A stretch of 64,000 nt of DNA from Podarcis vaucheri (GCA_965113315.1 OZ220368.1), one strand, 5' to 3'; positions 1 to 56,332 are shown, counted from the first letter of the stretch. A program made the numbers and translations. The notes: generated by a model not told the origin, from the letters alone.

Positions 1-19
1 GGCAGTACAAACTCCTGTA

Positions 20-146
20 TGCCCCCAACCACTAAAGCACCTCCCCTTTGAAACTCCCTGCATGTTGGTATTAGGCAAGCACCTTCACTGTGTTTTCGGT
101 GTCTACTAAAATCTTTTTTGCTTAAGCAAGCCTATCCAGACATGTA
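20..146 (+). mobile_element. Degenerate 3' end of an L2-like LINE
   Basis: Degenerate translation resembles the L2 ORF2 C-terminal motif (..NSL..IRQAPSL..F...LK..L..QAY stop). Confidence 0.45.
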
Positions 147-344
147 AAATTTGACCTGTGTTTTAATATGTGGTTTTATTTTACAATGTATATATTTCAA
201 AACAGGTGATTTTATCTTTTAGAAAAATAGGCTAACCTGTTTTTTAATTGTCAACCTTTAACGCCTATTTTAATTAAACCACTTAAGAGTTTTTTGAATT
301 CGGTCAAGTAAGATAATGGAATTGTAGAAATGTAGTGTGGGAAC

Positions 345-1203
345 TGTCTCCTGAGAAATCTGTATGTGGGACAAGAAGCTAAAGTTAGAACTGGATATGG
401 AACAACTGATTGGTTCAAAATTGAGAAAGGAGTACGGCAAGGCTGTATATTGTCTCCCTGCTTATTTAACTTATATGCAGAATTCATCATGCGAAAGCAG
501 GGGCGCCGACTTATAAAAAATATGGGGGGGGGGCATACCGGGGTCCTGCCCCGGGAAGTTTTCTAAATTTTAGATGAAAGTTAGTGAGTTTTAAAGTATT
601 TCGGCGGAGCCGGAGCGATTGGGGAGGAGGGGGCTTGTTGCCGGATTCTTCAGCTGGGCCGGAGATCCGCTGCTGGGGGGTCCCTGGGCCGAGTTGTGAG
701 CACGGCCTGCTGAAGGGAGATCCAGCCGATTGCGCGACGGGGACGGCCGGGGCTCTCCGGCTAGGGCGCGTGGCTGGCTGGCTGGCTGGCTGGCTGGCGA
801 AGGAGCAGGTGGGGAGGAGGCGGGGGACGGCGGCGGCGCTCTGCTGGAGGGGCACCCTAGATTATTGGGGGGCGGAGCCCCCAAAACGAATTTTTGAGGG
901 GGCTCGGGCCCCCTTAGGCCCCATGGAGTCGGCGCCTATGTGCGAAAGGCTGGGCTGGATGAATCCCTAGCCGGAAATGGAGGCAGTGAGAGATTTTACT
1001 TTCTTGGGCTCCATGATCACTGCAGATGGGGACAGCAGCCACGAAATTAAAAGACGCCTGCTCCTTGGGAGAAAGGCGATGACAAACCTAGACAGCATCT
1101 TAAAAAGCAGAGACATCACCTTGCCAACAAAGGACCGTATAGTAAAAGCTATGGTTTTCCCAGTAGTGATGTATGGAGTGAATGATGGACCATAAAGAAG
1201 GCT
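345..1203 (+). mobile_element. BovB/RTE LINE reverse-transcriptase fragment, interrupted by a hAT insertion and internally deleted
   Basis: Translations LLRNLYVGQEAKVRTGYGTTDWFKIEKGVRQGCILSPCLFNLYAEFIMRK and MEAVRDFTFLGSMITADGDSSHEIKRRLLLGRKAMTNLDSILKSRDITLPTK...MVFPVVMYG are typical RTE-BovB RT. The YADD segment is missing at ~976. Confidence 0.92.
498..940. mobile_element. Non-autonomous hAT element with GC-rich interior, inserted in BovB
   Basis: TIRs CAGGGGCGCCGACT / AGTCGGCGCCTATG; perfect 8-bp TSD TGCGAAAG at 490-497 and 941-948. Confidence 0.9.
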
Positions 1204-1857
1204 AATAATAAATATAATTAGGACAGGGGTGGGGAACCAGCAGCTTTTCAGCTCCTACTCCCCATCAGTCCCAGCCAGCATGGCTGATAGTCAGAGTTGA
1301 AAGCAGTTGCTGACCTGGGGGGGGGGCACCTGTCCCCACCCCACTTTAGGACAAAGCTGACAGAATGTGATCCCAGCACATGTATGTGAAGAGACTCACT
1401 GAAGTCACCAAGACGCAGAGATGAGATAAATGTGTACTTCCTGCTCGCGAAACTGGTCTCAAGAAAATTACCACTCCTTACGAAACGGTATTGACTTGGG
1501 AAAGTAGCAGTAAAACTGTGTCTTTAGACAGGATTTACCAGCTGGTTCCAGATTTGATCTGGATATCATTCAAACAGTTAAAATAATGTGTCAATTGCCA
1601 GCAGTGTGATCCATCCACAGGAAGCCAGCAACTATTTTGTGGGTCTTAACCTGCCATATATGAGTTTCACTAGCTGAAAACCCTCTTTATTTTGAAGGTT
1701 TCACTACCCCGACCTGAAATGCCCAAGAGAGTATCCTGTATCTTTTTTTCCGAAGAGGGAGAGAAAGGCTTCCTGCTAGCGAATCTAATGTTTCACACCT
1801 AGTCTGCCAAATCCATGCATAATGTGATACTGTCAACAGTGGAGCTTGGGCTCTTAA

Positions 1858-1946
1858 GGCTGCAATCCTAGGCACATTTATCTGTGTTCCAGCCCCATTG
1901 TGCTCTGTGGGGCTTACCTCCAAGTAAACACGCAGAGGATTGTGGC
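1858..1946. repeat. ~90-bp palindromic MITE-like repeat (Harbinger-like); at least 9 related copies in the window
   Basis: GGCTGCAATCC...AGCCCCATTG..GGGGCTTAC...GGATTG hairpin. Related copies near 2881, 27347, 30021, 31450, 36358, 55360, 56993 and 63180, often next to TAA/TTA. Confidence 0.65.
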
Positions 1947-3541
1947 ACAATTCTCTGGTGGAATTTGTTATCTCTACTGACAAGCATCTTTTCTGAAAGC
2001 AAGGAAACGTGAACACCCTTAAGGGAACTCATGCTTCAGCAAGAGCCTAAATGAATCCAGTGTTCGGCTGAATGGTGCTTACATCCGAGGGAAAAATGTT
2101 TCCCAGTCAGCCCTTTGAAGTGCCTCTATTAAGTGATTTTATACTAATAGGATTTTCCCATGAAAGAAAGACAAGAATGACAAAGCACTGAATGCTTGAT
2201 TAACTCTGCCCCTCTAACTAATTTGGATCATGTTAATTGACTCCCTCCCTGCTTGGCCATATTCAGCCATTGTCTGCTCCATTTATGAAGGCAGCTTGAT
2301 GAGACCCAAAATGCACCAGTGTGTAAACAGAGTTCTGCCAAACACAGGGTGGATGAGACATTCTCCAAAGCAAGTTTTCTTGGCTCCTGGTGACATTGCT
2401 GGACCCAGGCAGTCTGCTTTATGCATCCGCTGAATTGCTCATTTCATTCTTACCTCCCCCCCTTCTCCCCATTCATTTTCACCCAAACTTGTTTCTGGGC
2501 TCATTCACAGTCATTAACGTAATTGCTCCGGGAACTTTTTCTTCTTCTTCTCCCTGTTTGTGGCTGGCGGAGATTTTTGGCTCGCAGAAAAGAAATGTCA
2601 TTGTTCCTGCATTCAAAAGACAGCAGGGACTACCTGGGCTTTTCTTTCAACATTTTTTTTTTCTTTTCTGCTGACTCACTCCAATTGCTGAAGTTTAATT
2701 ACAGCTAAGCATATTGGCTGCACCTGTCCCATTCACAGCTGAATGCTGGGCGCCAGAGGCTGCGGCCACGTGGCTGGGGGTTCCCTTTTGCCCTCCGCAT
2801 CACCAGCTTGTGAAAACTGAGGGGCTTACGCACCAATAGGTGACCACAAAATTGCAGCCACAGTTGCTGAATGACTCCTAGGCTGCAATCCTATCCTCAC
2901 CTGGGAGTAAGTCCCCTTGCACTCAGTAGTGCTTACTTCTGATTAGACATGTATGGGCTTGTAGATTGCTGCTTGTTTCAGCTGCCACGTCAAGCCAGAA
3001 AATCCCATGAGAACTGCCATAAATCACACAACGAACACTTTTATGGTGCACAAATTACTGTTTTAATATTGTGTATGTAAAAAAAAATGTAGAAACAGGT
3101 CCCTGAAAAATTAAAATGAAAGGCAACCTGTCTCATGAAGAATCTGAGAACAAAAAGCACCAAAACCAGCAATTTTAAAATTAATGTAATTGTAATAATA
3201 ACAAACTATTATTTATAGTTTGTCATATATTCACCAATTCCAGAAGATGTTGCTTCCCAATCAGGGTTACAGTCTTTCAACCATTGCAAATGGAGTTGGA
3301 CTTTCAGGTTTTCACTTTCACTTAGCCTTAGCCAAGGGGCAGTTTTATATTTGCACATCAGGCTAGATTCAAGTAATGAATCCTGCTAGAAGAAGCCTGT
3401 GGAGGACTTCCAGTAGTGCAATGAATCCCGCTTCCCCTGTCCCCGCCCCCGTCCCCTAGATCAGCATTTGGAAGTAGAAGAGGGGGAATTGTTCCTTCTG
3501 GGAAGTTTAAAAGCTCACACTGACAAAACTACTACCATAGC

Positions 3542-3833
3542 AAAGGTAAGGTAAAAGGTAATGGACCCCTGGATGATTAAGTCCAGTCAGAGGTGACCAT
3601 GGCGTGTGGTACGGTGCTCATCTTGCTTCAGGCCAAGGGAGTCGCCCTTTATCTTCCCACCACAGTGGTACCTATTTATTTACTTGCACTGGTGTGCTTT
3701 CAAACTGCTAGGTTGGCAGAAGCTGGGACAGAGCAACGGGAGCTCATCCCATCACATGGATTCGAACCGCCAACCTTCCAATCAGCAAGCTCAAGATGCT
3801 CAGTGGTTTAGACCACGGTGCTACCCACGTCCC
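3542..3833 (-). mobile_element. Sauria SINE
   Basis: Reverse complement has a tRNA-like head and the (ACCTTT)n tail (AAAGGTAAGGTAAAAGGT on +); homologous to the copy at 9322. Confidence 0.85.
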
Positions 3834-4514
3834 TACCATAGCACTATGTTGACAGGGTCTCTATGCCTTAATACAGGGATGGCCCTCCAGATGTTGGGTT
3901 CCCAACTCCTATAAATCCTAACCAACATGGCCAATAGTTAGGGATGCTGGGAGTTGTAGGAGGGCTATGCTCAGTCATACAGATATTAAAAGGCGCAGAG
4001 AAAAAGCTGACCATCCTTGAAGCCCAATTTAAATAAGTGTGTGTGTCCAGCTGGCCAAGTGCATAAGAAAAGTGTGATCCAATGGGCTATGGTACCTTCA
4101 GTGGGTGAATAGTTCTACCAGAAAACTGTTGAAGAAGTTTGTTGTAAGATTGTTGAAAGGGCCCTGTCTGATTGAATTCACCATACTGGATAATTTCTGG
4201 CCAGTCACCAATTTATCTTGGGGGCAAGCATGCAATGGTGTCTCCCTGCCAAAGGCTTGTGGAGGATGAATATAAATTTCAATCTGATTTCTGGCCTGAC
4301 TTTGGTACTGAAATGGATTTGGTGGTTCCCAACTCTTTTTTTGCCCTCGAACCACTTGAATATTGCTTGACAGGCTACTTAATGATTATAATGTTGTAGC
4401 AATTATAATGTGCTATGCTAGATGCTGTATGATTTTTTAATTTTAATTTTACCAACACTGCGTTGACCACCTGAATGAAGCTCACAGGCCACAGTTCGGT
4501 TACTGCTCTAGACA

Positions 4515-5225
4515 ATCTACACTAGGAGCTAGACCCAGGGAGTCTTGTCTCTGGTGGTCTGCTGGACCTGTCAACAGCTTTCAGTACTATCCACCACAAT
4601 ATGGTTCTCATGGACCTGCCTGGGATAGACTCCGCTTGCTAGCAGTTCCAGTCCTTAATGGAAACACACAGTTCTGAAAGATGGTGCTGAGGACGACTGC
4701 TCATCTTGTCTCCCATGCTGTTTAACATCTATATGAAACGTATCAAGATCTGAAGATTTGGAGTTCACTGCCATCAGTATGCAGCTGTTGCTCAGCTCTC
4801 GTTTCTTCTTTCCATCTTAATCAAGGAAAGCCATGGAGATTCTGAATCACTGCCTGGAATCAGCAATGTTGAGCAAAGGTTAACAAAGCAAACGGGGGTT
4901 AACAAACTGAAGATTAATCCAGACAAGTCAGAAGTGTTCCTGTTGATAAAATAACCAATCTTGGATGAAGGAGCACTCTCCTTAAAGTTCGCAGATTCAG
5001 CGTGCTCCTAGATGCTTTGGTGGCAGATGTATCCTTGATCAATTTTGCCTAGCTGAATCTGGTGCTCCAGCTACATGGGGCTACCATTGCAAAATGTTCA
5101 GAAACTTGTACATAACATTGCTGTGAGACTTCTGACTGGAGCCAGTTATCAGGAGCATGCCGTGCCTTTATTTTTACCTTCATTGTAGTTTGATTCCAGG
5201 TCCAGTTCTAAACACTGATCATCTA
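4515..5225 (+). mobile_element. Old degenerate L2-like LINE RT fragment
   Basis: Remnants of LVLLDLSxAFxTIxH, SPMLFNIY, HQYA and LKINPDKSEV motifs, with many frameshifts. Confidence 0.65.
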
Positions 5226-5989
5226 CAGCAGTGTTTTCCAACCGGAGGCCATATTGCCCTCTGCCCCCCCCCCAGATATTTCAAGGGGGGCCGCAGGTGA
5301 AAATCACATAAATGGGGGGGGGGGCACAGCACAAGGCTAGGAGACCACAGAAGGAAGTGGGAAGTGATGGGGGGAATATTTTTTTAAAAATAAAAATTCC
5401 TGATTGATTGGCTATCCACTTGGCCAATCACAAGCGGGTAAGGGGGTGGCCCTGGCACTCCTTTTTGCCATGTGTGTTTTCCTGGAGCAGTCCTGGTTTC
5501 TTTCTGATGGGAGAGGGCAATTGCTGAGGCTCCCGTTTTGACCAGTAGAGCCAGCAATCCAGAACCCCCAGGTCAGGTAAGTGCGGTGGTGGGGTGGTAA
5601 TGGGTAGGACTGGGAGAGCCACTGCTGCTTGTTGCTGCTGCCAGTGCTGGGCCCAGTGGCAGCCTGGGCCTGACTCTGCAAGGTGCAGGGTGCAATCTAC
5701 CCAGCGCCTAGCAGAGAGGGTTGTCTGTTGCTGCTGACTTGCGTCTAGTAAATAACTAAGAAAGCTGCACTAAGTTCAGTGGTTCTCACTCCCAGGGCTC
5801 CTCCAGATGGCAAGATCTTTTTGCACCAGTTCAGTGAAGACCACTTGCTTTTTAAAATTCTCCCATATATACGGAACTCCCTGTGTACCTTTTGGACTGT
5901 ATCCATAGGTTTCCCCCTCTGTGTCAAATAACTGGGGTCAAATAAGTGTTCTTTCTTTTTTTATAATACATTGAAGATTGATCTCCCTT

Positions 5990-6113
5990 GGGAGATTCTG
6001 GACTCTCCTTCCTTGGAGGTTTCTGAGCAGAGGTTGGATATTTCATGGATATTTTAGCTGAGTTTCCTACATTGCTGACCCTTGGGGTCCCTTCCAGCTC
6101 CATGAATCTATGT
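5990..6113 (+). mobile_element. CR1 LINE 3' tail
   Basis: GACTCTCCTTCCTTGGAGGTTT..GCAGAGGTTGGAT...TGACCCTTGGGGTCCCTTCCA..TC..TGA.TCTATG, the typical squamate CR1 terminus. Confidence 0.75.
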
Positions 6114-6768
6114 TTTTATGCTTATTTCATTATGTTCCTGTCATTTTATGTAATTGTATAAATAATAAATATAAATAAAGCATGCTCTATTTACAAACAA
6201 AATATTTACCTAAATAGCTACCTTTCTACCGGTAGGAAGGGGGGTGGGTGGGCGTAGCCAGGATTTTTGTGGGGGGGGGGCAGAACTTCAGATTTGTATT
6301 GATGTTTTCTTATGGGGGGATCTGCCCCCCTTGCCTACGTCAATTGGGGGGCACAGGGTTGGAAGGGGGCCACGGTCAGAAAAAGTTTGGGAAACACAGA
6401 TATACAGAGACCTGCACAGCTTATGATCAGGATATGTGCCGGGCTGCCCCCTGCCATACAAACGTGTTCAACTAACTGAGCTCCATGTTTTGCTGATAGC
6501 AATGGGCTCAGCCAAAGAGGACAGAAGAGAGAGGGACATCTATTTGTTGCACAGTCATGTGCATAGTAAGTTGCCAACCTTGCCATCCCTCTGCTTGGCT
6601 TCCAAAGTCAGAGAAAAGGAACAGATTAAGGTATGGTTACCAGATTTTTTTCAATGAATCCGGGGGGCACTTTTTTCCTTTTTGAAGCTGAGTAGCAACA
6701 GGGAGTCAGTAGTGGGGATGGTGAGTCAAAAGACCCTGGGCCCAAGCACACACGCATATTGTATAAAG

Positions 6769-8232
6769 CAGTGTTTCCCAACCAGTGTTCCGCGGCACAC
6801 TAGTGTGCCGCGAGATGTTGCCTGGTGTGCCGCGAGATGTTGCTTGGAGGGAGGCGGGCGAGTCCAAAAAAGGTTGGGAAACACTGCTCTAACACACGCC
6901 AGCCGGGGTCTGCCTCCGCGTTGCATCAGCTTCCTCGCTCTCGGCGCTCTGCTTGCCAGCCTGGTGGCCTCTGCCCTGCCCCGAGACTGGAAGGGAGGGG
7001 CGGGGCTTCCACTGCGGCTGCGTCTCTGGCTCTTTCGACTCATTCCTCCTCCGAGTGGGCTTGAAAGAGCGGCCGATGGATGAATCGGCCGGCGACCCTG
7101 AAGCCTTGTGCAAAGTAGAGGAGGCGGAGAAGCGACGGCAGGGAGCTTAGGCGCCGCATCCGGCTCATTGCGGGAAGTCAAGATGGCGGCGGGTAAGTGT
7201 GGGAAGCAGCTTTTTTCCTCCGCCGCCCCCCTCTCACCGGGAATAAAGGGGGCCCCGCTGGGGGGTGACGTTGTAGAACGCAGAGTTCCTATTTTGGGAA
7301 GGTTTGAGGGGTCGGACTAAGCGGGTTGGGGGCTGGTCTGGGCTTCCGCTCCCTCCCCTCCCCACGGAGTGTACCTGCGGTGCAAGGAGGCGCTCTGAGC
7401 CACTGCTCTGGGAAAGGAAGGAGGGCGAGGCGGCCTGGCCAAGTGCAGGGGAGACCCGTAGTGGGGAGCAGGGGGAGGAGGAGGCACCAAGGAATGGAGG
7501 CGGGGGAGACTCCCTCGCTTTGCAGAAACTGCAAAAAACGAGGCAGGAATTGGGTTTGTTTTTGTAGCTCAGGACGTGCTTCGCTTCTGGTGTGCCTAAG
7601 GCGGCCGCCCCAATTCTCCCCTAGCCCGTCTTTCCAGGTGCTGCCCCCCCTCCGCAAAGGGCCATAGAACTGTAGAGTTGGCAGGGGTCCCAAGGGTCAT
7701 CTAGTCTTAAGTTTCTCTTTCAAAAAGGAAACGTGGGTTAAAGCGGCGGCGACGCCCCCCACTCACTTTCCTGCTCTGGCTTCCCTAACAGTTTTCCAAG
7801 TTGCGTCACTGGATCCAGCCCCCTTTTCCACAGGTGACACGGGGCTGGAGGGAGGGAAAGAGGGCTTTACGTCGCGCACAAAGGCAGCCTCCTAGAAGCG
7901 CTCTGGGCCAGCGCCGTTTCGCCGAAGGCGCCGGAGGACCCCCACCCTCAGCTCCTTCAGAAAGGACTGGAGCGGAATAGCCCTTTCTCTTCTTCCCCAA
8001 CCCTTGTCGTTGGAGGAGTCCCTCAGTCCCTCGCTTTGCTGCCTCCTCCCCCCCCCCAAAGCTTGGAGGTTCCCCGGCAAGGGGGAGGGGAAAAAATTGA
8101 AACTTACACTTTCGTGCGTCCCTCCCGGCGTGACGCTGCGCGCTGACGTCACGGGGCTGTAATGGTGGTGTGCCTCAAGATTTTTTTCATCAAACAAGTG
8201 TGCCTTTGCCCAAAAAAGGTTGGGAAACACTG
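6769..8232. mobile_element. Nested 1464-bp non-autonomous hAT element carrying CpG-island cargo (Pack-type)
   Basis: TIRs CAGTGTTTCCCAACC / GGTTGGGAAACACTG; perfect 8-bp TSD GTATAAAG at 6761-6768 and 8233-8240; an additional internal right TIR ends at 6886. Confidence 0.85.
6990..7198 (+). promoter_or_regulatory. Captured housekeeping-type promoter/first exon inside transposon cargo
   Basis: CpG-rich, with a GC box (GGGCGGGG ~6998), ETS-like GGAAGT and YY1 motif AAGATGGCGGC with ATG at 7183, followed by the consensus donor G|GTAAGT at 7192/7193. Confidence 0.6.
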
Positions 8233-9321
8233 GTATAAAGGTGCAAAGCACTTCTTTCGTACCCTGTGACAGCCACCTGCCCATGACTCCCGAGCCTCCC
8301 CTAATCTGTCAAAACAAAGGGGAAAGGAGATCTGTACTGCCAGACACCCCTGGTGGCGGCGGCAGAGAGCAACTCCAGAAGCCAGCCAGAGCCAACTGCA
8401 CTACCAGGCTGGCTCTGGGCTGCTGAGGAGACGGAATTTGTCTGGGGACAGATTTGCAAATCTGGGGACTGTCCCAGGGAACCAGGGACATCTGGTAATC
8501 CTAGATTAAGGCCTTCCAATTTAAAGTTCCAAAAGGATAGACACTAAAATTAGGATAGAAAAATCTCATTCTGCAGTTTGTAGGTCTTAAGTTGGGAGTG
8601 CAGGAAGGGTTTTGCAGACTTAATTAAATTGCCCTGGGTACAAAACGTGTTCCTGCAAGGACTAATCTTCCCCATTCTCTCCATTTTCCATCCAAGCTGG
8701 AGAACTTGAAAGCCTGCTCAGTGAGGAAAATGACTTAAGGAAAAAGCCACGTCTCTTTCTTTAAAGAAAAAATCCCTGGACCACTGGCCTAGTTTAACCA
8801 ATCCAGAACAGCTGTTCTGTGATGTTTCAAGCACCTCTCAAATACACAGGACGGAATTTCCCCCTTTGATGGGTGTATCAAATGTAAATAAGAAATCTCT
8901 CCTAGTTCACATCTCTTATTTTTGTACCTTCTTGGGTTGTTGTAAAGTATTAATGGCTCAGCTTCCTTGGTGGGGAACCTGTCTCTCTCCAGATGTTGAC
9001 AGACTCCAGCTTCCACCAGTCCCAGTGAGCATGACGATGGGAGATACAGTTCAACATCTGGAGGGCCCAAGGTTCCCTGCCCATGTGGAACGCCATGCCC
9101 CACAGCGTTCAAAGATGGCCCATCATAACTACAATGGGTACATCAAATTAAAAGATACTCTTGCCTCTCCTCTGAGTATTTGGATAAAAATTGAGATGAT
9201 GTCATCCTTTCTGTCTATTCAGGTATCTGCTATTGAATATCAAAGGTGATCCTTCCCCTTTAAGAGTTTCTGTCTAGAGCCGGCTACTTAGGGAGCAATG
9301 TGTTTTGGTTTTTTAAATAAC

Positions 9322-9662
9322 ACGGGTGGCGCTGTGGGTTAACCCAGAGCCTTGCTGATCAGAAGGTCGGTGGTTTGAATCCCTGCGACGGGATGAGCTC
9401 CCATTGCTCTGTCCCAGCTCCTGCCCACCTAGCAGTTTGAAAGCACGTCAAAGTGCAAGTAGATAAATAGGTACCGCTCCGGCGGGAAAGTAAACGGCGT
9501 TTCCATGCGCTGCTCTGGTTTCACCAGAAGCGGCTTAGTCATGCTGGCCACATGACCCGGAAGCTGTACACCGATTCCCTCGGCCAGTAAAGTGAGATAA
9601 GTGCCACAACCCCAGAGTCGCCCGCGACTGGACCTAATGGTCAGGGGTCCCTTTACCTTTAC
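9322..9662 (+). mobile_element. Sauria SINE (near full length)
   Basis: ACGGGTGGCGCTGTGGGTTAA head, B-box-like GGTTTGAATCC, CCCTTTACCTTTA tail. Confidence 0.9.
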
Positions 9663-16714: not shown

Positions 16715-19700
16715 CTATTTCCTGTCATTTGACCTGGAACGGCTAGAAAGAATATACATTGAGATTCTCAAACAATGGAAGTAGTTCAGTATCATTATTT
16801 AAACATACACCTGAAATTTCAACTAGACAAATTGACCTATTATAAGGCTTTTAATTAGTGCACTAATGAAAATGACATTTCTCTAGTAAATATGCTAAAG
16901 AATTAAACTCTGTATTCAGACATTAAGGTTATGGAAGTGTTCTTACCTACGAGATCTGGAAAATGAACGGGAAGGCTTATGATTTCTCTCCCTTGACAGT
17001 GATCTCTCTCTCCTTCTATCTCTAGAAAGGGACCTATAAAAGGAATAATCAGGATTTCAAGAGAATATATTTTTCACGCAATTCTTGAAAAACAGCATAC
17101 TCAAATCTCACTCCTTGAATAACCTTTTTCTTGTAGCTTAAATTCATATTTTTAAATATGTTGCAAATTAATGGCTATAACATACTAACGTATGTGCACA
17201 GGTTTTACTTTCTATTTGAGCAACACATGGTATCAATGCATTAACTAGTACAGTGCTTGTAAACATGCTTGAAAATCTTAATTTATGAGGCACATTTTAG
17301 AAGAATATGTAATTCATCATTGATACTGGATTCAAAACAAAAGGTAGTTTAGTTTATCACAGCATTTGATGGCAGAAAAAAACACTTTTAAATTTTTTAA
17401 AGCTGAATTCAGATTAGACTATACTTTAATAAACACATTTGGCATGCATTTTACACAGCATACTGACAACTGTGCTGGCCAAGTACACTTTCAAAGGAGT
17501 CAGAGATTTATGGCACTTCAAGTGTAGAATTCAACTATCCTTTGGGCTATGAAATGTCACACCTGTGCCATCTGCACCACAGTGCCATCTGTTTAAGGGG
17601 GTGGGGAGTCCCTTATTCTATAAGCACCATCTAGGCCAGGGGTCAGCAAACGCTTTCACCAGGGGGCCAGTCCACTTTCCCTCAGACTTTGGGGGGCGGA
17701 CGGGTGGACTATATTTTGGGGGGGAAATAAAAAATGAACGAATTCCTATGCCCCACAAATAACCCAGAGGTGCATTTTAAATAAAAGGACACATTCTACT
17801 CATGTAATAACATGCGGATTCCCGGACCATCCATGGGCCGGATTTAGAAGGCGATTGGGCCAGATCCGGCCCCTGGGTCTTAGTTTGCCTACACATTATC
17901 TAGACAACCCAAATGCTGCACCAATAGTTTACCTGCTGCGGCTACGGGAGAAGCTTCTCCTTCGTGGAGATCTACAATCAAAAATAGAAAAGTGAGTATT
18001 TTCATCAATTCAACATTACTGGGGCGAGGCAATTCCCAACTTGTCAAGTCACTGTTGGGCCCAGTGAATGTGCCAAATAACATGGCACTCATCGTCCAGC
18101 AAAATGGAAAGATTCAGGCATTAAAAACTCAGTGTGATCAGCACGCTTCCAACCATGAGTTTGCTTTAACTAACACCATGTCATAAGCAAACCTGTCCAA
18201 TGCAGCACTTCCATCTCAACTAAATCCACTGCCTAGAACACTATACTAATGTCCCACAAGTAGTCCCAAAATTGGTATAAACCAGTATTTTGGAACCCAT
18301 GCAAGGTAAAGTCCGCAACAGGACACAAGGTACCAAGTGAAAGACTAACGCACACCGTGACAAAGCCATTAAACACCATTAGAACTGCATATTTGTGAAT
18401 GTAAAAAATTAAAATGTCATAGTGTGTTTAGTCTAAAGAACCTTAGTTTGCCCAGTTTATCCCAAAAGTAATTGTTCCGAAAACTGTTAGTAAAACAGTT
18501 TAAAGGTGAAAGGAGTTGGCAGATTTTTGCAAGGAAGAACTAAGTTAGCAATTAAATGTAGTTTGCCATCTCGCATGCAAATATACTGCAGTTTAGTTTC
18601 TTATATTAAGTTTCCTTAACACCCTTAAAAGTTTTATTCAAGCAACATATGTATGTTACCACGAAATTATGCACAGCCAGCCTTTGATTGAGAAAAAGTA
18701 ATTACTTATAAGCCGCTTACTCNNNNNNNNNNNNNNNNNNNNNNNNNNNNNNNNNNNNNNNNNNNNNNNNNNNNNNNNNNNNNNNNNNNNNNNNNNNNNN
18801 NNNNNNNNNNNNNNNNNNNNNNNNNNNNNNNNNNNNNNNNNNNNNNNNNNNNNNNNNNNNNNNNNNNNNNNNNNNNNNNNNNNNNNNNNNNNNNNNNNNN
18901 NNNNNNNNNNNNNNNNNNNNNNNNNNNNNNNNNNNNNNNNNNNNNNNNNNNNNNNNNNNNNNNNNNNNNNNNNNNNNNNNNNNNNNNNNNNNNNNNNNNN
19001 NNNNNNNNNNNNNNNNNNNNNNNNNNNNNNNNNNNNNNNNNNNNNNNNNNNNNNNNNNNNNNNNNNNNNNNNNNNNNNNNNNNNNNNNNNNNNNNNNNNN
19101 NNNNNNNNNNNNNNNNNNNNNNNNNNNNNNNNNNNNNNNNNNNNNNNNNNNNNNNNNNNNNNNNNNNNNNNNNNNNNNNNNNNNNNNNNNNNNNNNNNNN
19201 NNNNNNNNNNNNNNNNNNNNNNNNNNNNNNNNNNNNNNNNNNNNNNNNNNNNNNNNNNNNNNNNNNNNNNAAAAATGAAAAACAAGCCATCAGTACAACC
19301 ATCTATTAGCTAACAAATACTCCTATTGTGTTCTACAGTGAAAGGGAACAGATTTCATTCTCTTATCTTGTATGGACTTCATTTACCTGAAACAGGCTAA
19401 AATCAGCCCTTGCAGATATAATGACCTTAAGTACGACTAAAACACCCAACCAATCTGTCAGGGTCAGAGAATGCATTACTTGTAAAAACCTGCTTTATTT
19501 TGAAATTTATTCCTGCATAACTCAAAAGTTGGTCATATTTCAACAGATTTACTATTTTCAGATTTAGCTAAGCAACTGTTCATTGCTTCAGCATTTTTAA
19601 AACAGTTGCCTGCCTGGCATCATTGTGCTAAAGTGGAAAAATCTCAAGTGGGTGAAAAAGCCAAGCTGTTGTATGCAATGTTTACAACAATGGTGTAAAG

Positions 19701-21499: not shown

Positions 21500-22320
21500 T
21501 CTTACGCCTTGGTAACTGGCGCGCCTACTACTGAGAGGTTTCCCGCCCATCGCGGCGGCCTCCGGCCCTCACAATTCTCCGTCGGTTCGACTCGAGCTTG
21601 CGCATATAATACCCACCACGCCGCCCTTCACGCTCAAGCAGTCCGCCTCCCCTTTCATCTCCTCCCCGGGACCAACATCCCGGCGGGAGACCTGACGTTA
21701 CTTCAACCACACAAAATGGCGGCGGCTCTTTGTCCGCTGCCGCAACCGCGAGGCCTTCCATCCCGACCAAGCCCCTCCCTCACCGGCTGCCGGGCCAGGA
21801 GTGTGACCGACTCTCACGAGTAACCGCTACACGGTTTTATGATTATTAATTTTCGGTCGGCTCCGCAGTCTCCCTCGCTTCTCGCCCCTCAGCCACCGAG
21901 CTCGATCGCTGCGTCGCCCGTTTTCCCGCCAAGACTCGATTCCGCCGCCTCTCCCACTTCGTCGCACTGGACAAAATGGCGGAAGGCGCCTACACACCCC
22001 GAGTTTATATACGTCCTGCCCATCTAGCACGTGACCAGGATTCTCACCAATTGCACGTCGCTTCTCCGGTGATCGACGGTTCCTTGCGCCCTACCCCCTT
22101 TCTCAGAGAGATGGCTCCGCCTCAAGGAGCGATCCTTCCTGACGCTTCTTGTTCGCTTAGTAGTGCCTGCTCCTATTGCCCAGTAGGCCGGGCCACTGTC
22201 ACCGTGGCAACCAGAGAATAGGTGGGACGGGGAGGGGGGGAAGAATGGGCGGGGCGGGGCCGACAGTGCCTCACGGAGGCTCAGGGCTTATGGTGGAAAC
22301 GTGTGGGGCGGGAGGTGTCC
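21500..22320 (-). promoter_or_regulatory. SRSF3: SRSF3 CpG-island promoter and non-coding exon 1 (~21980-21818)
   Basis: Minus-strand TATATAAA at 22011-22004, YY1 motifs (AAAATGGCGG at 21973 and ~21713), CACGTG E-box at ~22028, CCAAT at ~22048, candidate donor CTC|GTGAGA at 21818. Confidence 0.75.
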
Positions 22321-56091: not shown

Positions 56092-56332
56092 CAGGGGTCA
56101 GCAAACTTTTTCAGCAGGGGGCTGGTCCACTGTCCCTGAGACCTTGTGGGGGGCCAGACTATATTGGGGGGGGATGAACGAATTCCTACGCCCCACAAAT
56201 AACCCAGAGATGCATTTTAAATAAAAGGACACATTCTACACATGTAAAAACACACTGATTCCCAGATCCTTGCCGAATTTAGAAGGCGACTGGGCCGGAT
56301 CCGGCCCCCAGGCCTTAGTTTGCCTACCCATC
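56092..56332. mobile_element. hAT MITE (same family as 17637-17897)
   Basis: CAGGGGTCAGCAAAC...TTTGCCTACCCATC; TSD CGGTACAC/CTGTACAC. Confidence 0.85.

Follow-up and report, generated by a model that had tools for sequence, protein, structure and literature searches.

A nested hAT element of the lizard Podarcis vaucheri holds CpG-rich DNA that resembles the 5' end of a gene

We analyzed a stretch of 64,000 nucleotides of the Podarcis vaucheri genome (GCA_965113315.1 OZ220368.1), hereafter the window, and found in it a nested pair of hAT elements, an outer one at 6632-8503 and an inner one at 6769-8232, each bordered by perfect 8-bp target site duplications (TSDs). The inner element measures 1464 bp and encloses a cargo of 1279 bp that, by its composition and motifs, looks like the promoter together with a tiny exon 1 and roughly 1 kb of the following intron from a housekeeping gene with a short 5' untranslated region (UTR), the kind of gene that bears a translation initiator for short 5' UTRs (TISU). 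We consider it likely that this cargo is the 5' end of a gene, captured from a donor that was itself linked to a transposable element (TE). The signature of this TE-linked donor is the most useful feature of the element, whose type is already known in animals.

The nested anatomy of TSDs and terminal inverted repeats (TIRs) is real and far above chance. When all 64 kb were scanned for perfect 8-bp TSDs bordering a TIR match of at least 11/14, three structures were obtained: the outer element, the inner element and an unrelated miniature inverted-repeat transposable element (MITE) at 498-940. At this threshold, 30 windows with shuffled blocks averaged 0.63 structures each; across the whole set a single one scored at least 12/14, and 14/14 was never reached. 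The TIRs of the inner element start with CAGTG and are identical at 15/15 positions, those of the outer element at 12/14, and the two copies agree at 8/8 positions in both the inner and the outer TSD. An initial annotation of this DNA had proposed the two nested perfect TSDs, each bordering TIRs, and the 1464-bp inner element, and its coordinates hold throughout. The two ends of the inner element have their TIR and a subterminal motif in common. Once the inner element and one TSD are taken out, the outer MITE is 400 bp long; its interior has a CpG observed/expected ratio (o/e) of 0.24-0.29, and it is probably older and immobile. The coordinates of all features are given in Table 1.

Table 1. 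Features of the nested elements and of the cargo, in window coordinates
Feature	Position	Strand	Remarks
Outer TSD, left	6624..6631	.	GATTAAGG
Outer non-autonomous hAT, left part	6632..6760	+	TIR 12/14 against right end; CpG o/e 0.29
Inner TSD, left	6761..6768	.	GTATAAAG; TA-centered, matches NTNTANAN
Short MITE unit, self-contained, 118 bp	6769..6886	+	Left TIR 6769-6783, 22-bp tandem repeat 6803-6847, right tip 6864-6886; hairpin fold
CTCTAACA after internal right end	6887..6894	.	Probable right half of an earlier TSD at the donor locus
Cargo, 1279 bp	6887..8165	+	GC 0.62, CpG o/e 0.66; resembles a gene 5' end
GC box	6997..7005	+	Weak alone
Initiator (Inr)-like site	7164..7170	+	Putative +1 at 7167
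ETS-like GGGAAGT and TISU/YY1 motif CAAGATGGCGGC (7179-7190) with ATG at 7183	7172..7192	+	10 coding nt to putative exon end
5' splice site GTAAGT	7193..7198	+	Followed by intron-like DNA rich in G-runs
Retroposon 3' tail, 44 bp	7662..7705	-	Diverged copies elsewhere in window, 78-89% match
Possible branch point and acceptor	7784..7833	+	Splicing here would give 23 codons, then a stop
Half and full cAMP response element (CRE), TGACGTCA	8131..8151	.	Full CRE at 8144-8151, the only one in window
True right end of inner element, about 67 bp	8166..8232	+	Two GTGTGCC subterminal motifs, zero CpG
Inner TSD, right	8233..8240	.	GTATAAAG
Outer element, right part	8241..8503	+	CpG o/e 0.24, TpG o/e 1.58
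Outer TSD, right	8504..8511	.	GATTAAGG

Several properties of the cargo suggest a gene 5' end. Its CpG o/e compares with 0.19-0.22 in bulk DNA and 0.84-0.99 in two native islands of the window, and CpG-rich DNA with the GC box reaches about 290 bp upstream of the YY1 motif. Across the putative start, the GC skew turns near 6990 from -0.24 to positive values that reach +0.42; the promoter of the native STK38 gene shows the same change, as does SRSF3 in mirror image. The TISU core at 7179 is the only perfect match in the window to the longer TISU/YY1 consensus, and the words AAGATGGCG and TGACGTCA each occur once in the window, both inside the cargo. From the ATG to the splice donor the distance is 10 nt, and the TISU/YY1 motif lies 12 nt past the Inr-like site (7164-7170). 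A +1 near 7167, placed by this site, would give a 26-nt exon with 10 coding bases. The distance from this putative start to the motif falls in the range of +5 to +30 in which the TISU core AAGATGGC sits relative to the start site (PMC2518114). TISU supplies the start codon in 64% of TISU genes and marks housekeeping functions, and functions in translation, RNA, mitochondria and ubiquitin pathways are over-represented among TISU genes (PMC2518114). Of 3000 dinucleotide-shuffled versions of the cargo, 19 contained the YY1 motif, 14 the CRE, and 1 (strict) or 13 (loose) a YY1 motif with GTAAGT within 30 nt; the motifs were picked after viewing the sequence, and the counts flatter them. The GC box (362/3000) and the donor alone (156/3000) are not rare in DNA of this composition. 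All the landmarks named in the initial annotation are present, namely the GC box at 6997, the ATG at 7183, the donor GT at 7193, the retroposon tail and the CRE at 8144-8151. Its "ETS/YY1" site stands as a YY1 motif with ATG; the ETS half reads GGGAAGT, one base off the canonical core.

The diverged retroposon tail at 7662-7705, which we take to be CR1, points to genomic DNA as the source of the cargo; the same argument has been used for hobo_AC elements (PMC3014272). The TpG and CpA o/e of the cargo (0.90 and 0.85) are near the values of the native islands (0.76-0.82 and 0.75-0.95), and CpG decay therefore gives no date for the capture. Intact motifs and retained CpGs would fit a recent arrival or protection from methylation equally well, so promoter activity is only putative. 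The copy encodes no protein and is at most an orphan promoter; it points toward the 3' end of SRSF3, whose stop codon is about 8 kb from the element. The acceptor at 7833 was considered as the start of exon 2 of the donor gene, which it probably is not, with only 23 codons before the stop. A second promoter-like cluster lies at the right edge of the cargo (8100-8165), with the half-CRE, the full CRE and a minus-strand donor-like site at 8107, and a C-rich skew is found nearby at 7887-8086. This cluster may be an overlapping start on the opposite strand or another promoter, or it may belong to a further captured piece, the cargo then being composite.

A link between the donor and a TE is suggested by an extra right end inside the element. 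The internal tip at 6864-6886 is identical to 8210-8232 over 23 bp, and over the next 25 bp or so further inside the two right ends diverge; they are therefore derived from different copies. The 8-mer that follows the internal end, CTCTAACA, differs from the inner TSD and has a central TA; it fits nTCTAnnn, as do 0.16% of the cargo 8-mers, and nnnTAnnn (1.9%). No match to the left TIR with up to 3 mismatches was found inside the cargo, where the distal right end is thus without a left end of its own. Because a target-like 8-mer follows the extra right end, the donor would have had a short MITE upstream: on moderate evidence, the 118-bp MITE probably once lay about 280 bp upstream of the start of the donor gene. 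The internal right TIR at 6886 with a flank unlike the TSD, as first annotated, is borne out. The accompanying proposal that a short MITE was mobilized together with adjacent host DNA keeps its first half, since the 8-mer fits a TA-centered Buster/Charlie pattern and the MITE was probably once linked to donor DNA; joint movement does not follow, since gap repair into a resident MITE gives the same TSD. The internal right end has no proximal GGCACAC motif. The idea that it was crippled by loss of this subterminal motif was dropped, as the right end of Hermes binds no BED domains (PMC10368747). A plain bypass of this end to a cryptic one was ruled out, the distal end being a real 67-bp end of the family.

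With 8-bp TSDs and short TIRs with YARNG termini (CAGTG), the inner element has the marks of a hAT, the terminal rule being that given for anole hATs (PMC3014272). Its target word GTATAAAG matches both nnnTAnnn, the Buster consensus target (PMC3517528), and NTNTANAN, which together with NTCTAGAN and CAGTG-type TIRs is given for Charlie-related anole hATs in table 1 of PMC3014272. By its ends and target alone the element, which has no transposase, fits the Buster/Charlie group, and TA-centered target words are found in all 5 Buster-type insertions listed for the window. The outer element fits a hAT MITE (8-bp TSD, short TIRs and a small non-coding body); its termini, TATGG and TAGGA, are each one position off the YARNG rule, consistent with decay, and three trial patterns detected no further ends of this MITE in the window. 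None of 5 open reading frames (ORFs) over the element has a Pfam match, and the element is non-coding. By definition, Pack-TIRs hold 100-5000 bp of internal DNA between two ends that belong to one TIR element and each comprise 10 terminal bp or more; they have a unique parental copy of at least 90% identity, in which no TE lies within 100 bp of the segment captured (PMC8277862). The cargo lies within this size range, between ends that we assigned to one TIR element from the ends themselves rather than from a consensus library, and the inner element can be treated as Pack-TIR-like, its formal assignment depending on a parent copy. A search with the TE-free-parent criterion would probably filter the element out by its internal TIR and target-like 8-mer.

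Searches for the donor gave blank results. Self-BLAST of the window recovered neither a parent nor a second copy of the cargo. The antisense ORF at 6729-7316 matched none of 777 candidates and nothing in a representative library of 1.84 billion sequences, the ORF at 7895-8308 none of 43 candidates, and the in-frame stretch at 7102-7317 none of 389 longer candidates at E <= 10. The searched ORFs are almost certainly spurious, so the blank protein results say little. Rfam at gathering thresholds gave a single match in the window, at 31812, outside the element.

Some observations weigh against a captured gene 5' end with a TE-linked donor. The unrelated MITE at 498-940 also has a CpG-rich interior (o/e 0.78), and CpG content alone is therefore no evidence of promoter capture. 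The 8-mer CTCTAACA fails the published patterns NTNTANAN and NYYTARRN, and on a 5-site matrix its score is equaled or exceeded by 33 of the 1271 8-mers in the cargo, so that a half-TSD is only moderately rare. The donor gene was found neither by the protein searches nor by Pfam over the ORFs of the element. The cargo is far above the median of 224 bp for animal Pack-TIRs, and the parent is absent from a window that shows only 6.6 kb on the left, 56.9% of parents lying within 15 kb (PMC8277862). Other origins of the CpG-rich DNA fare worse. L1-type 5' UTRs carry YY1 sites, and the cargo could stem from a retroelement with a CpG-rich 5' region instead of from a host gene; a YY1 motif in CpG-rich DNA, the CpG-rich interiors of other TEs in the window and the missing donor would all agree with this. 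However, the CpG-rich DNA and the GC box extend far upstream of the motif, the ATG has a splice donor 10 nt behind it, the downstream part is broken up by a diverged retroposon tail and contains no ORF that matches Pfam, which together make such a source very improbable. Least credible of all is a CpG island native to the locus, in which the TIR/TSD pairs would be independent insertions or chance, or the region misassembled. Target-site preference does raise the odds of equal 8-mers, and the scaffold has an N gap of 548 bases within SRSF3 (18723-19270). Nevertheless, under a matrix of 5 local sites, among them the focal one, identity of two independent target words has a p of about 0.0013, the outer pair would have to match too and each end would be without a partner. 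Moreover, the identified coding genes (SRSF3, STK38 and a BTB_3-domain gene) lie elsewhere, SRSF3 and STK38 with CpG islands of their own. This probability and the excess of TSD/TIR structures over the shuffles make a native island with chance flanks very unlikely, in agreement with the original proposal that an island lying inside another MITE cannot be ancestral to this locus.

For the capture itself we lean, tentatively, toward gap repair with a template switch. In this scheme a 118-bp MITE of the family would have inserted about 280 bp upstream of the donor start, CTCTAACA being half of its TSD. Another copy of the family would then have been broken or excised, and its left end would have invaded the promoter-side copy by homology; repair synthesis would have run through the right end of that copy and 1.28 kb into the gene before rejoining the right end of the broken copy (8166-8232). 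The product may have stayed where it was formed, or have moved once or more as a unit. Such a route is a duplication and would leave the donor gene intact. It is favored because one template switch explains the two different right ends and the missing second left end without an extra deletion, and most single-copy Pack-TIRs of animals are attributed to gap filling (PMC8277862). Under template switching the TSD may date from a cargo-free insertion and is therefore no proof that the promoter moved; the early implication that the cargo moved with its ends asks too much of a TSD, and among animal Pack-TIRs only 4 (1.4%) are multicopy (PMC8277862). The same annotation had suggested two-element (hybrid or macro-) transposition, which is also possible and to which we give less credence. 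Here the transposase would have paired the short MITE's left end, upstream of the promoter, with the right end that a second, left-truncated member of the family contributed from intron 1, cut out all the DNA in between and inserted it at GTATAAAG, with the donor restored from the sister chromatid. The retained internal right end with its target-like flank, the two different right ends, the large cargo, the perfect TSD and TIRs and the lack of a nearby parent in the window are all compatible with it, and there are precedents in Ac macrotransposons, also hATs (PMC9910405), and in the hybrid Pack-CACTA model (PMC6379663, PMC13317346). However, two insertions around one promoter are required, together with loss of the left end and target half of the second element, neither of which was detected in the cargo, and the Pack-CACTA model loses both inner ends where one is retained here. 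Nor does a crippled internal end provide a usable argument: GGCACAC is lacking, yet the Hermes right end binds no BED domains. After capture by either route, the 1464-bp unit could have been amplified as the standard multicopy form of a non-autonomous family, which we regard as doubtful. Anole hobo_AC non-autonomous families of 1.3-3.4 kb with captured genomic DNA mostly have tens to hundreds of copies (PMC3014272), and multicopy Pack-TIRs lie far from their parents and favor GC-rich cargo (PMC8277862). An older 1171-bp relative with a GC-rich interior also lies 232 bp upstream of the outer element, although it has only end sequence in common with the focal element. The rarity of multicopy animal Pack-TIRs argues the other way, as does, weakly, the failure to find a second copy within 64 kb.

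Animals are already known to host elements of this kind, and the statement of the initial annotation that such gene capture is mainly characterized in plants must be revised. Tan et al. (2021) reported 370 Pack-TIRs in 100 animal genomes, of which 208 have hAT ends, the commonest carrier (PMC8277862); hAT-N8_XT, for example, is a three-copy element with 291 bp of 5' UTR sequence from CAPSL. The anole hobo_AC hATs, which have taken up genomic DNA that includes old CR1 along with other fragments (Novick et al., PMC3014272), and the bat Helitrons, which disperse promoters and first exons (PMC4224331), contradict the same statement. Our element resembles the animal Pack-TIRs in having non-TE DNA of 100-5000 bp between the ends of one family, a hAT carrier and gene 5' sequence. 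In contrast to them, its cargo is about six times the median size and seemingly comprises a whole core promoter and exon 1, and its internal TIR, together with the half target site, implies a parent linked to a TE. The survey excluded TE-linked parents and states that such cases may be missed; its lizard row (anoCar2) has 0 Pack-TIRs from 77 annotated DNA TEs (PMC8277862). With the hobo_AC/Charlie-related hATs of Anolis carolinensis the element shares 8-bp TSDs and YARNG termini, both being lizard hATs. Its TIR is identical to no row of table 1 of PMC3014272, where hAT-N3_AC, hAT-HT3 and SPIN come closest, and in the parts of that paper covered capture is described for the hobo clade and promoter cargo is not among the descriptions. 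In the squamate literature covered, that is, papers under open license, no lizard hAT carrying a promoter was found. Ac macrotransposons and hybrid Pack-CACTA elements are alike in that the outer ends of two neighbors enclose host DNA and internal ends may persist (PMC9910405, PMC6379663); they differ as plant systems with observed movement, whereas a single internal end is seen here and the route is conjectural.

A parallel in cargo comes from bat Helitrons, through which the promoters of 15 genes have reached a total of 4,690 copies (Thomas et al. 2014, PMC4224331). In HelibatN3, too, a vertebrate DNA transposon carries a promoter along with the 5' UTR, exon 1 and some of intron 1 (PMC4224331). 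Unlike the lizard element, of which one copy is seen, bat Helitrons are rolling-circle elements without TIRs or 8-bp TSDs, and their amplification has been shown. It seems improbable that a Buster-type lineage amplified an intact TISU/YY1 promoter and exon 1 to many loci, its unmethylated copies starting new or antisense transcripts; that lineage would be the cut-and-paste counterpart of HelibatN3, reached through a TE-linked route outside the scope of the animal Pack-TIR survey. The CpGs preserved in the cargo (o/e 0.66, against 0.24-0.29 in the surrounding MITE) and its intact motifs are explained equally well by recent arrival, and the suggested system that duplicates and disperses housekeeping promoters goes beyond the one copy seen in the window, for which no donor was found. 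The element is of interest as a clean, probably young case, in a squamate, of a cut-and-paste transposon that appears to hold an entire CpG-island promoter; squamates are all but missing from the animal survey. Its retained internal end and putative half target site would record the beginning of a capture; for TE-linked parents, that survey left the choice between template switching and two-element transposition open. Were it multicopy and active, it would supply new promoters; if it is one inert copy, it is a structural curiosity.

The window contains SRSF3 on the minus strand (identified by a PDB match), STK38 on the plus strand and the BTB_3-domain gene, which we take to be KCTD20. CpG islands of SRSF3 and STK38 lie near 21.5-22.5 kb and 34.3-35.3 kb; YY1-like motifs occur in the native SRSF3 island at 21712 and 21973, in the orientation opposite to SRSF3. 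Peptide motifs of p21 gave two chance-like matches in the window and none in 1-6600, and these matches do not confirm the expected SRSF3-CDKN1A synteny.

Other repeats are present, among them types that we presume to be Sauria SINE-like (short interspersed element), BovB-like and CR1-like. The relative upstream of the outer element (5229-6399, 1171 bp) is an older Buster-type hAT with a TIR match of 12/15 and TSDs ATCTACAG/ATATACAG; its interior is GC-rich but CpG-poor (o/e 0.18), with CCAAT boxes at 5406 and 5424, GGTAAGT at 5576 and a CR1-like tail, and is possibly an older, decayed capture. The MITE at 498-940, with a perfect TSD TGCGAAAG and a TIR match of 12/14, is inserted in a presumably BovB/RTE-like fragment and its CpG-rich interior accounts for the apparent CpG island at the left edge of the window. 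Small hAT-like insertions with TA-centered TSDs matching at 7/8 positions are found at 17637-17897, 46205-46294 and 56092-56332, the first and last being 81% alike. An element at about 46826-47327 in an STK38 intron, presumably a Tc1/mariner-like MITE, has inverted ends and a CpG-rich interior. Two copies that we take to be Sauria-SINE-like, at about 3543-3830 and at 9323-9643, are 85% alike over 149 bp. Finally, the Rfam match (31812-31884, 44 bits) is tRNA-like and adjoins a CR1-like tail, and is probably a SINE head.

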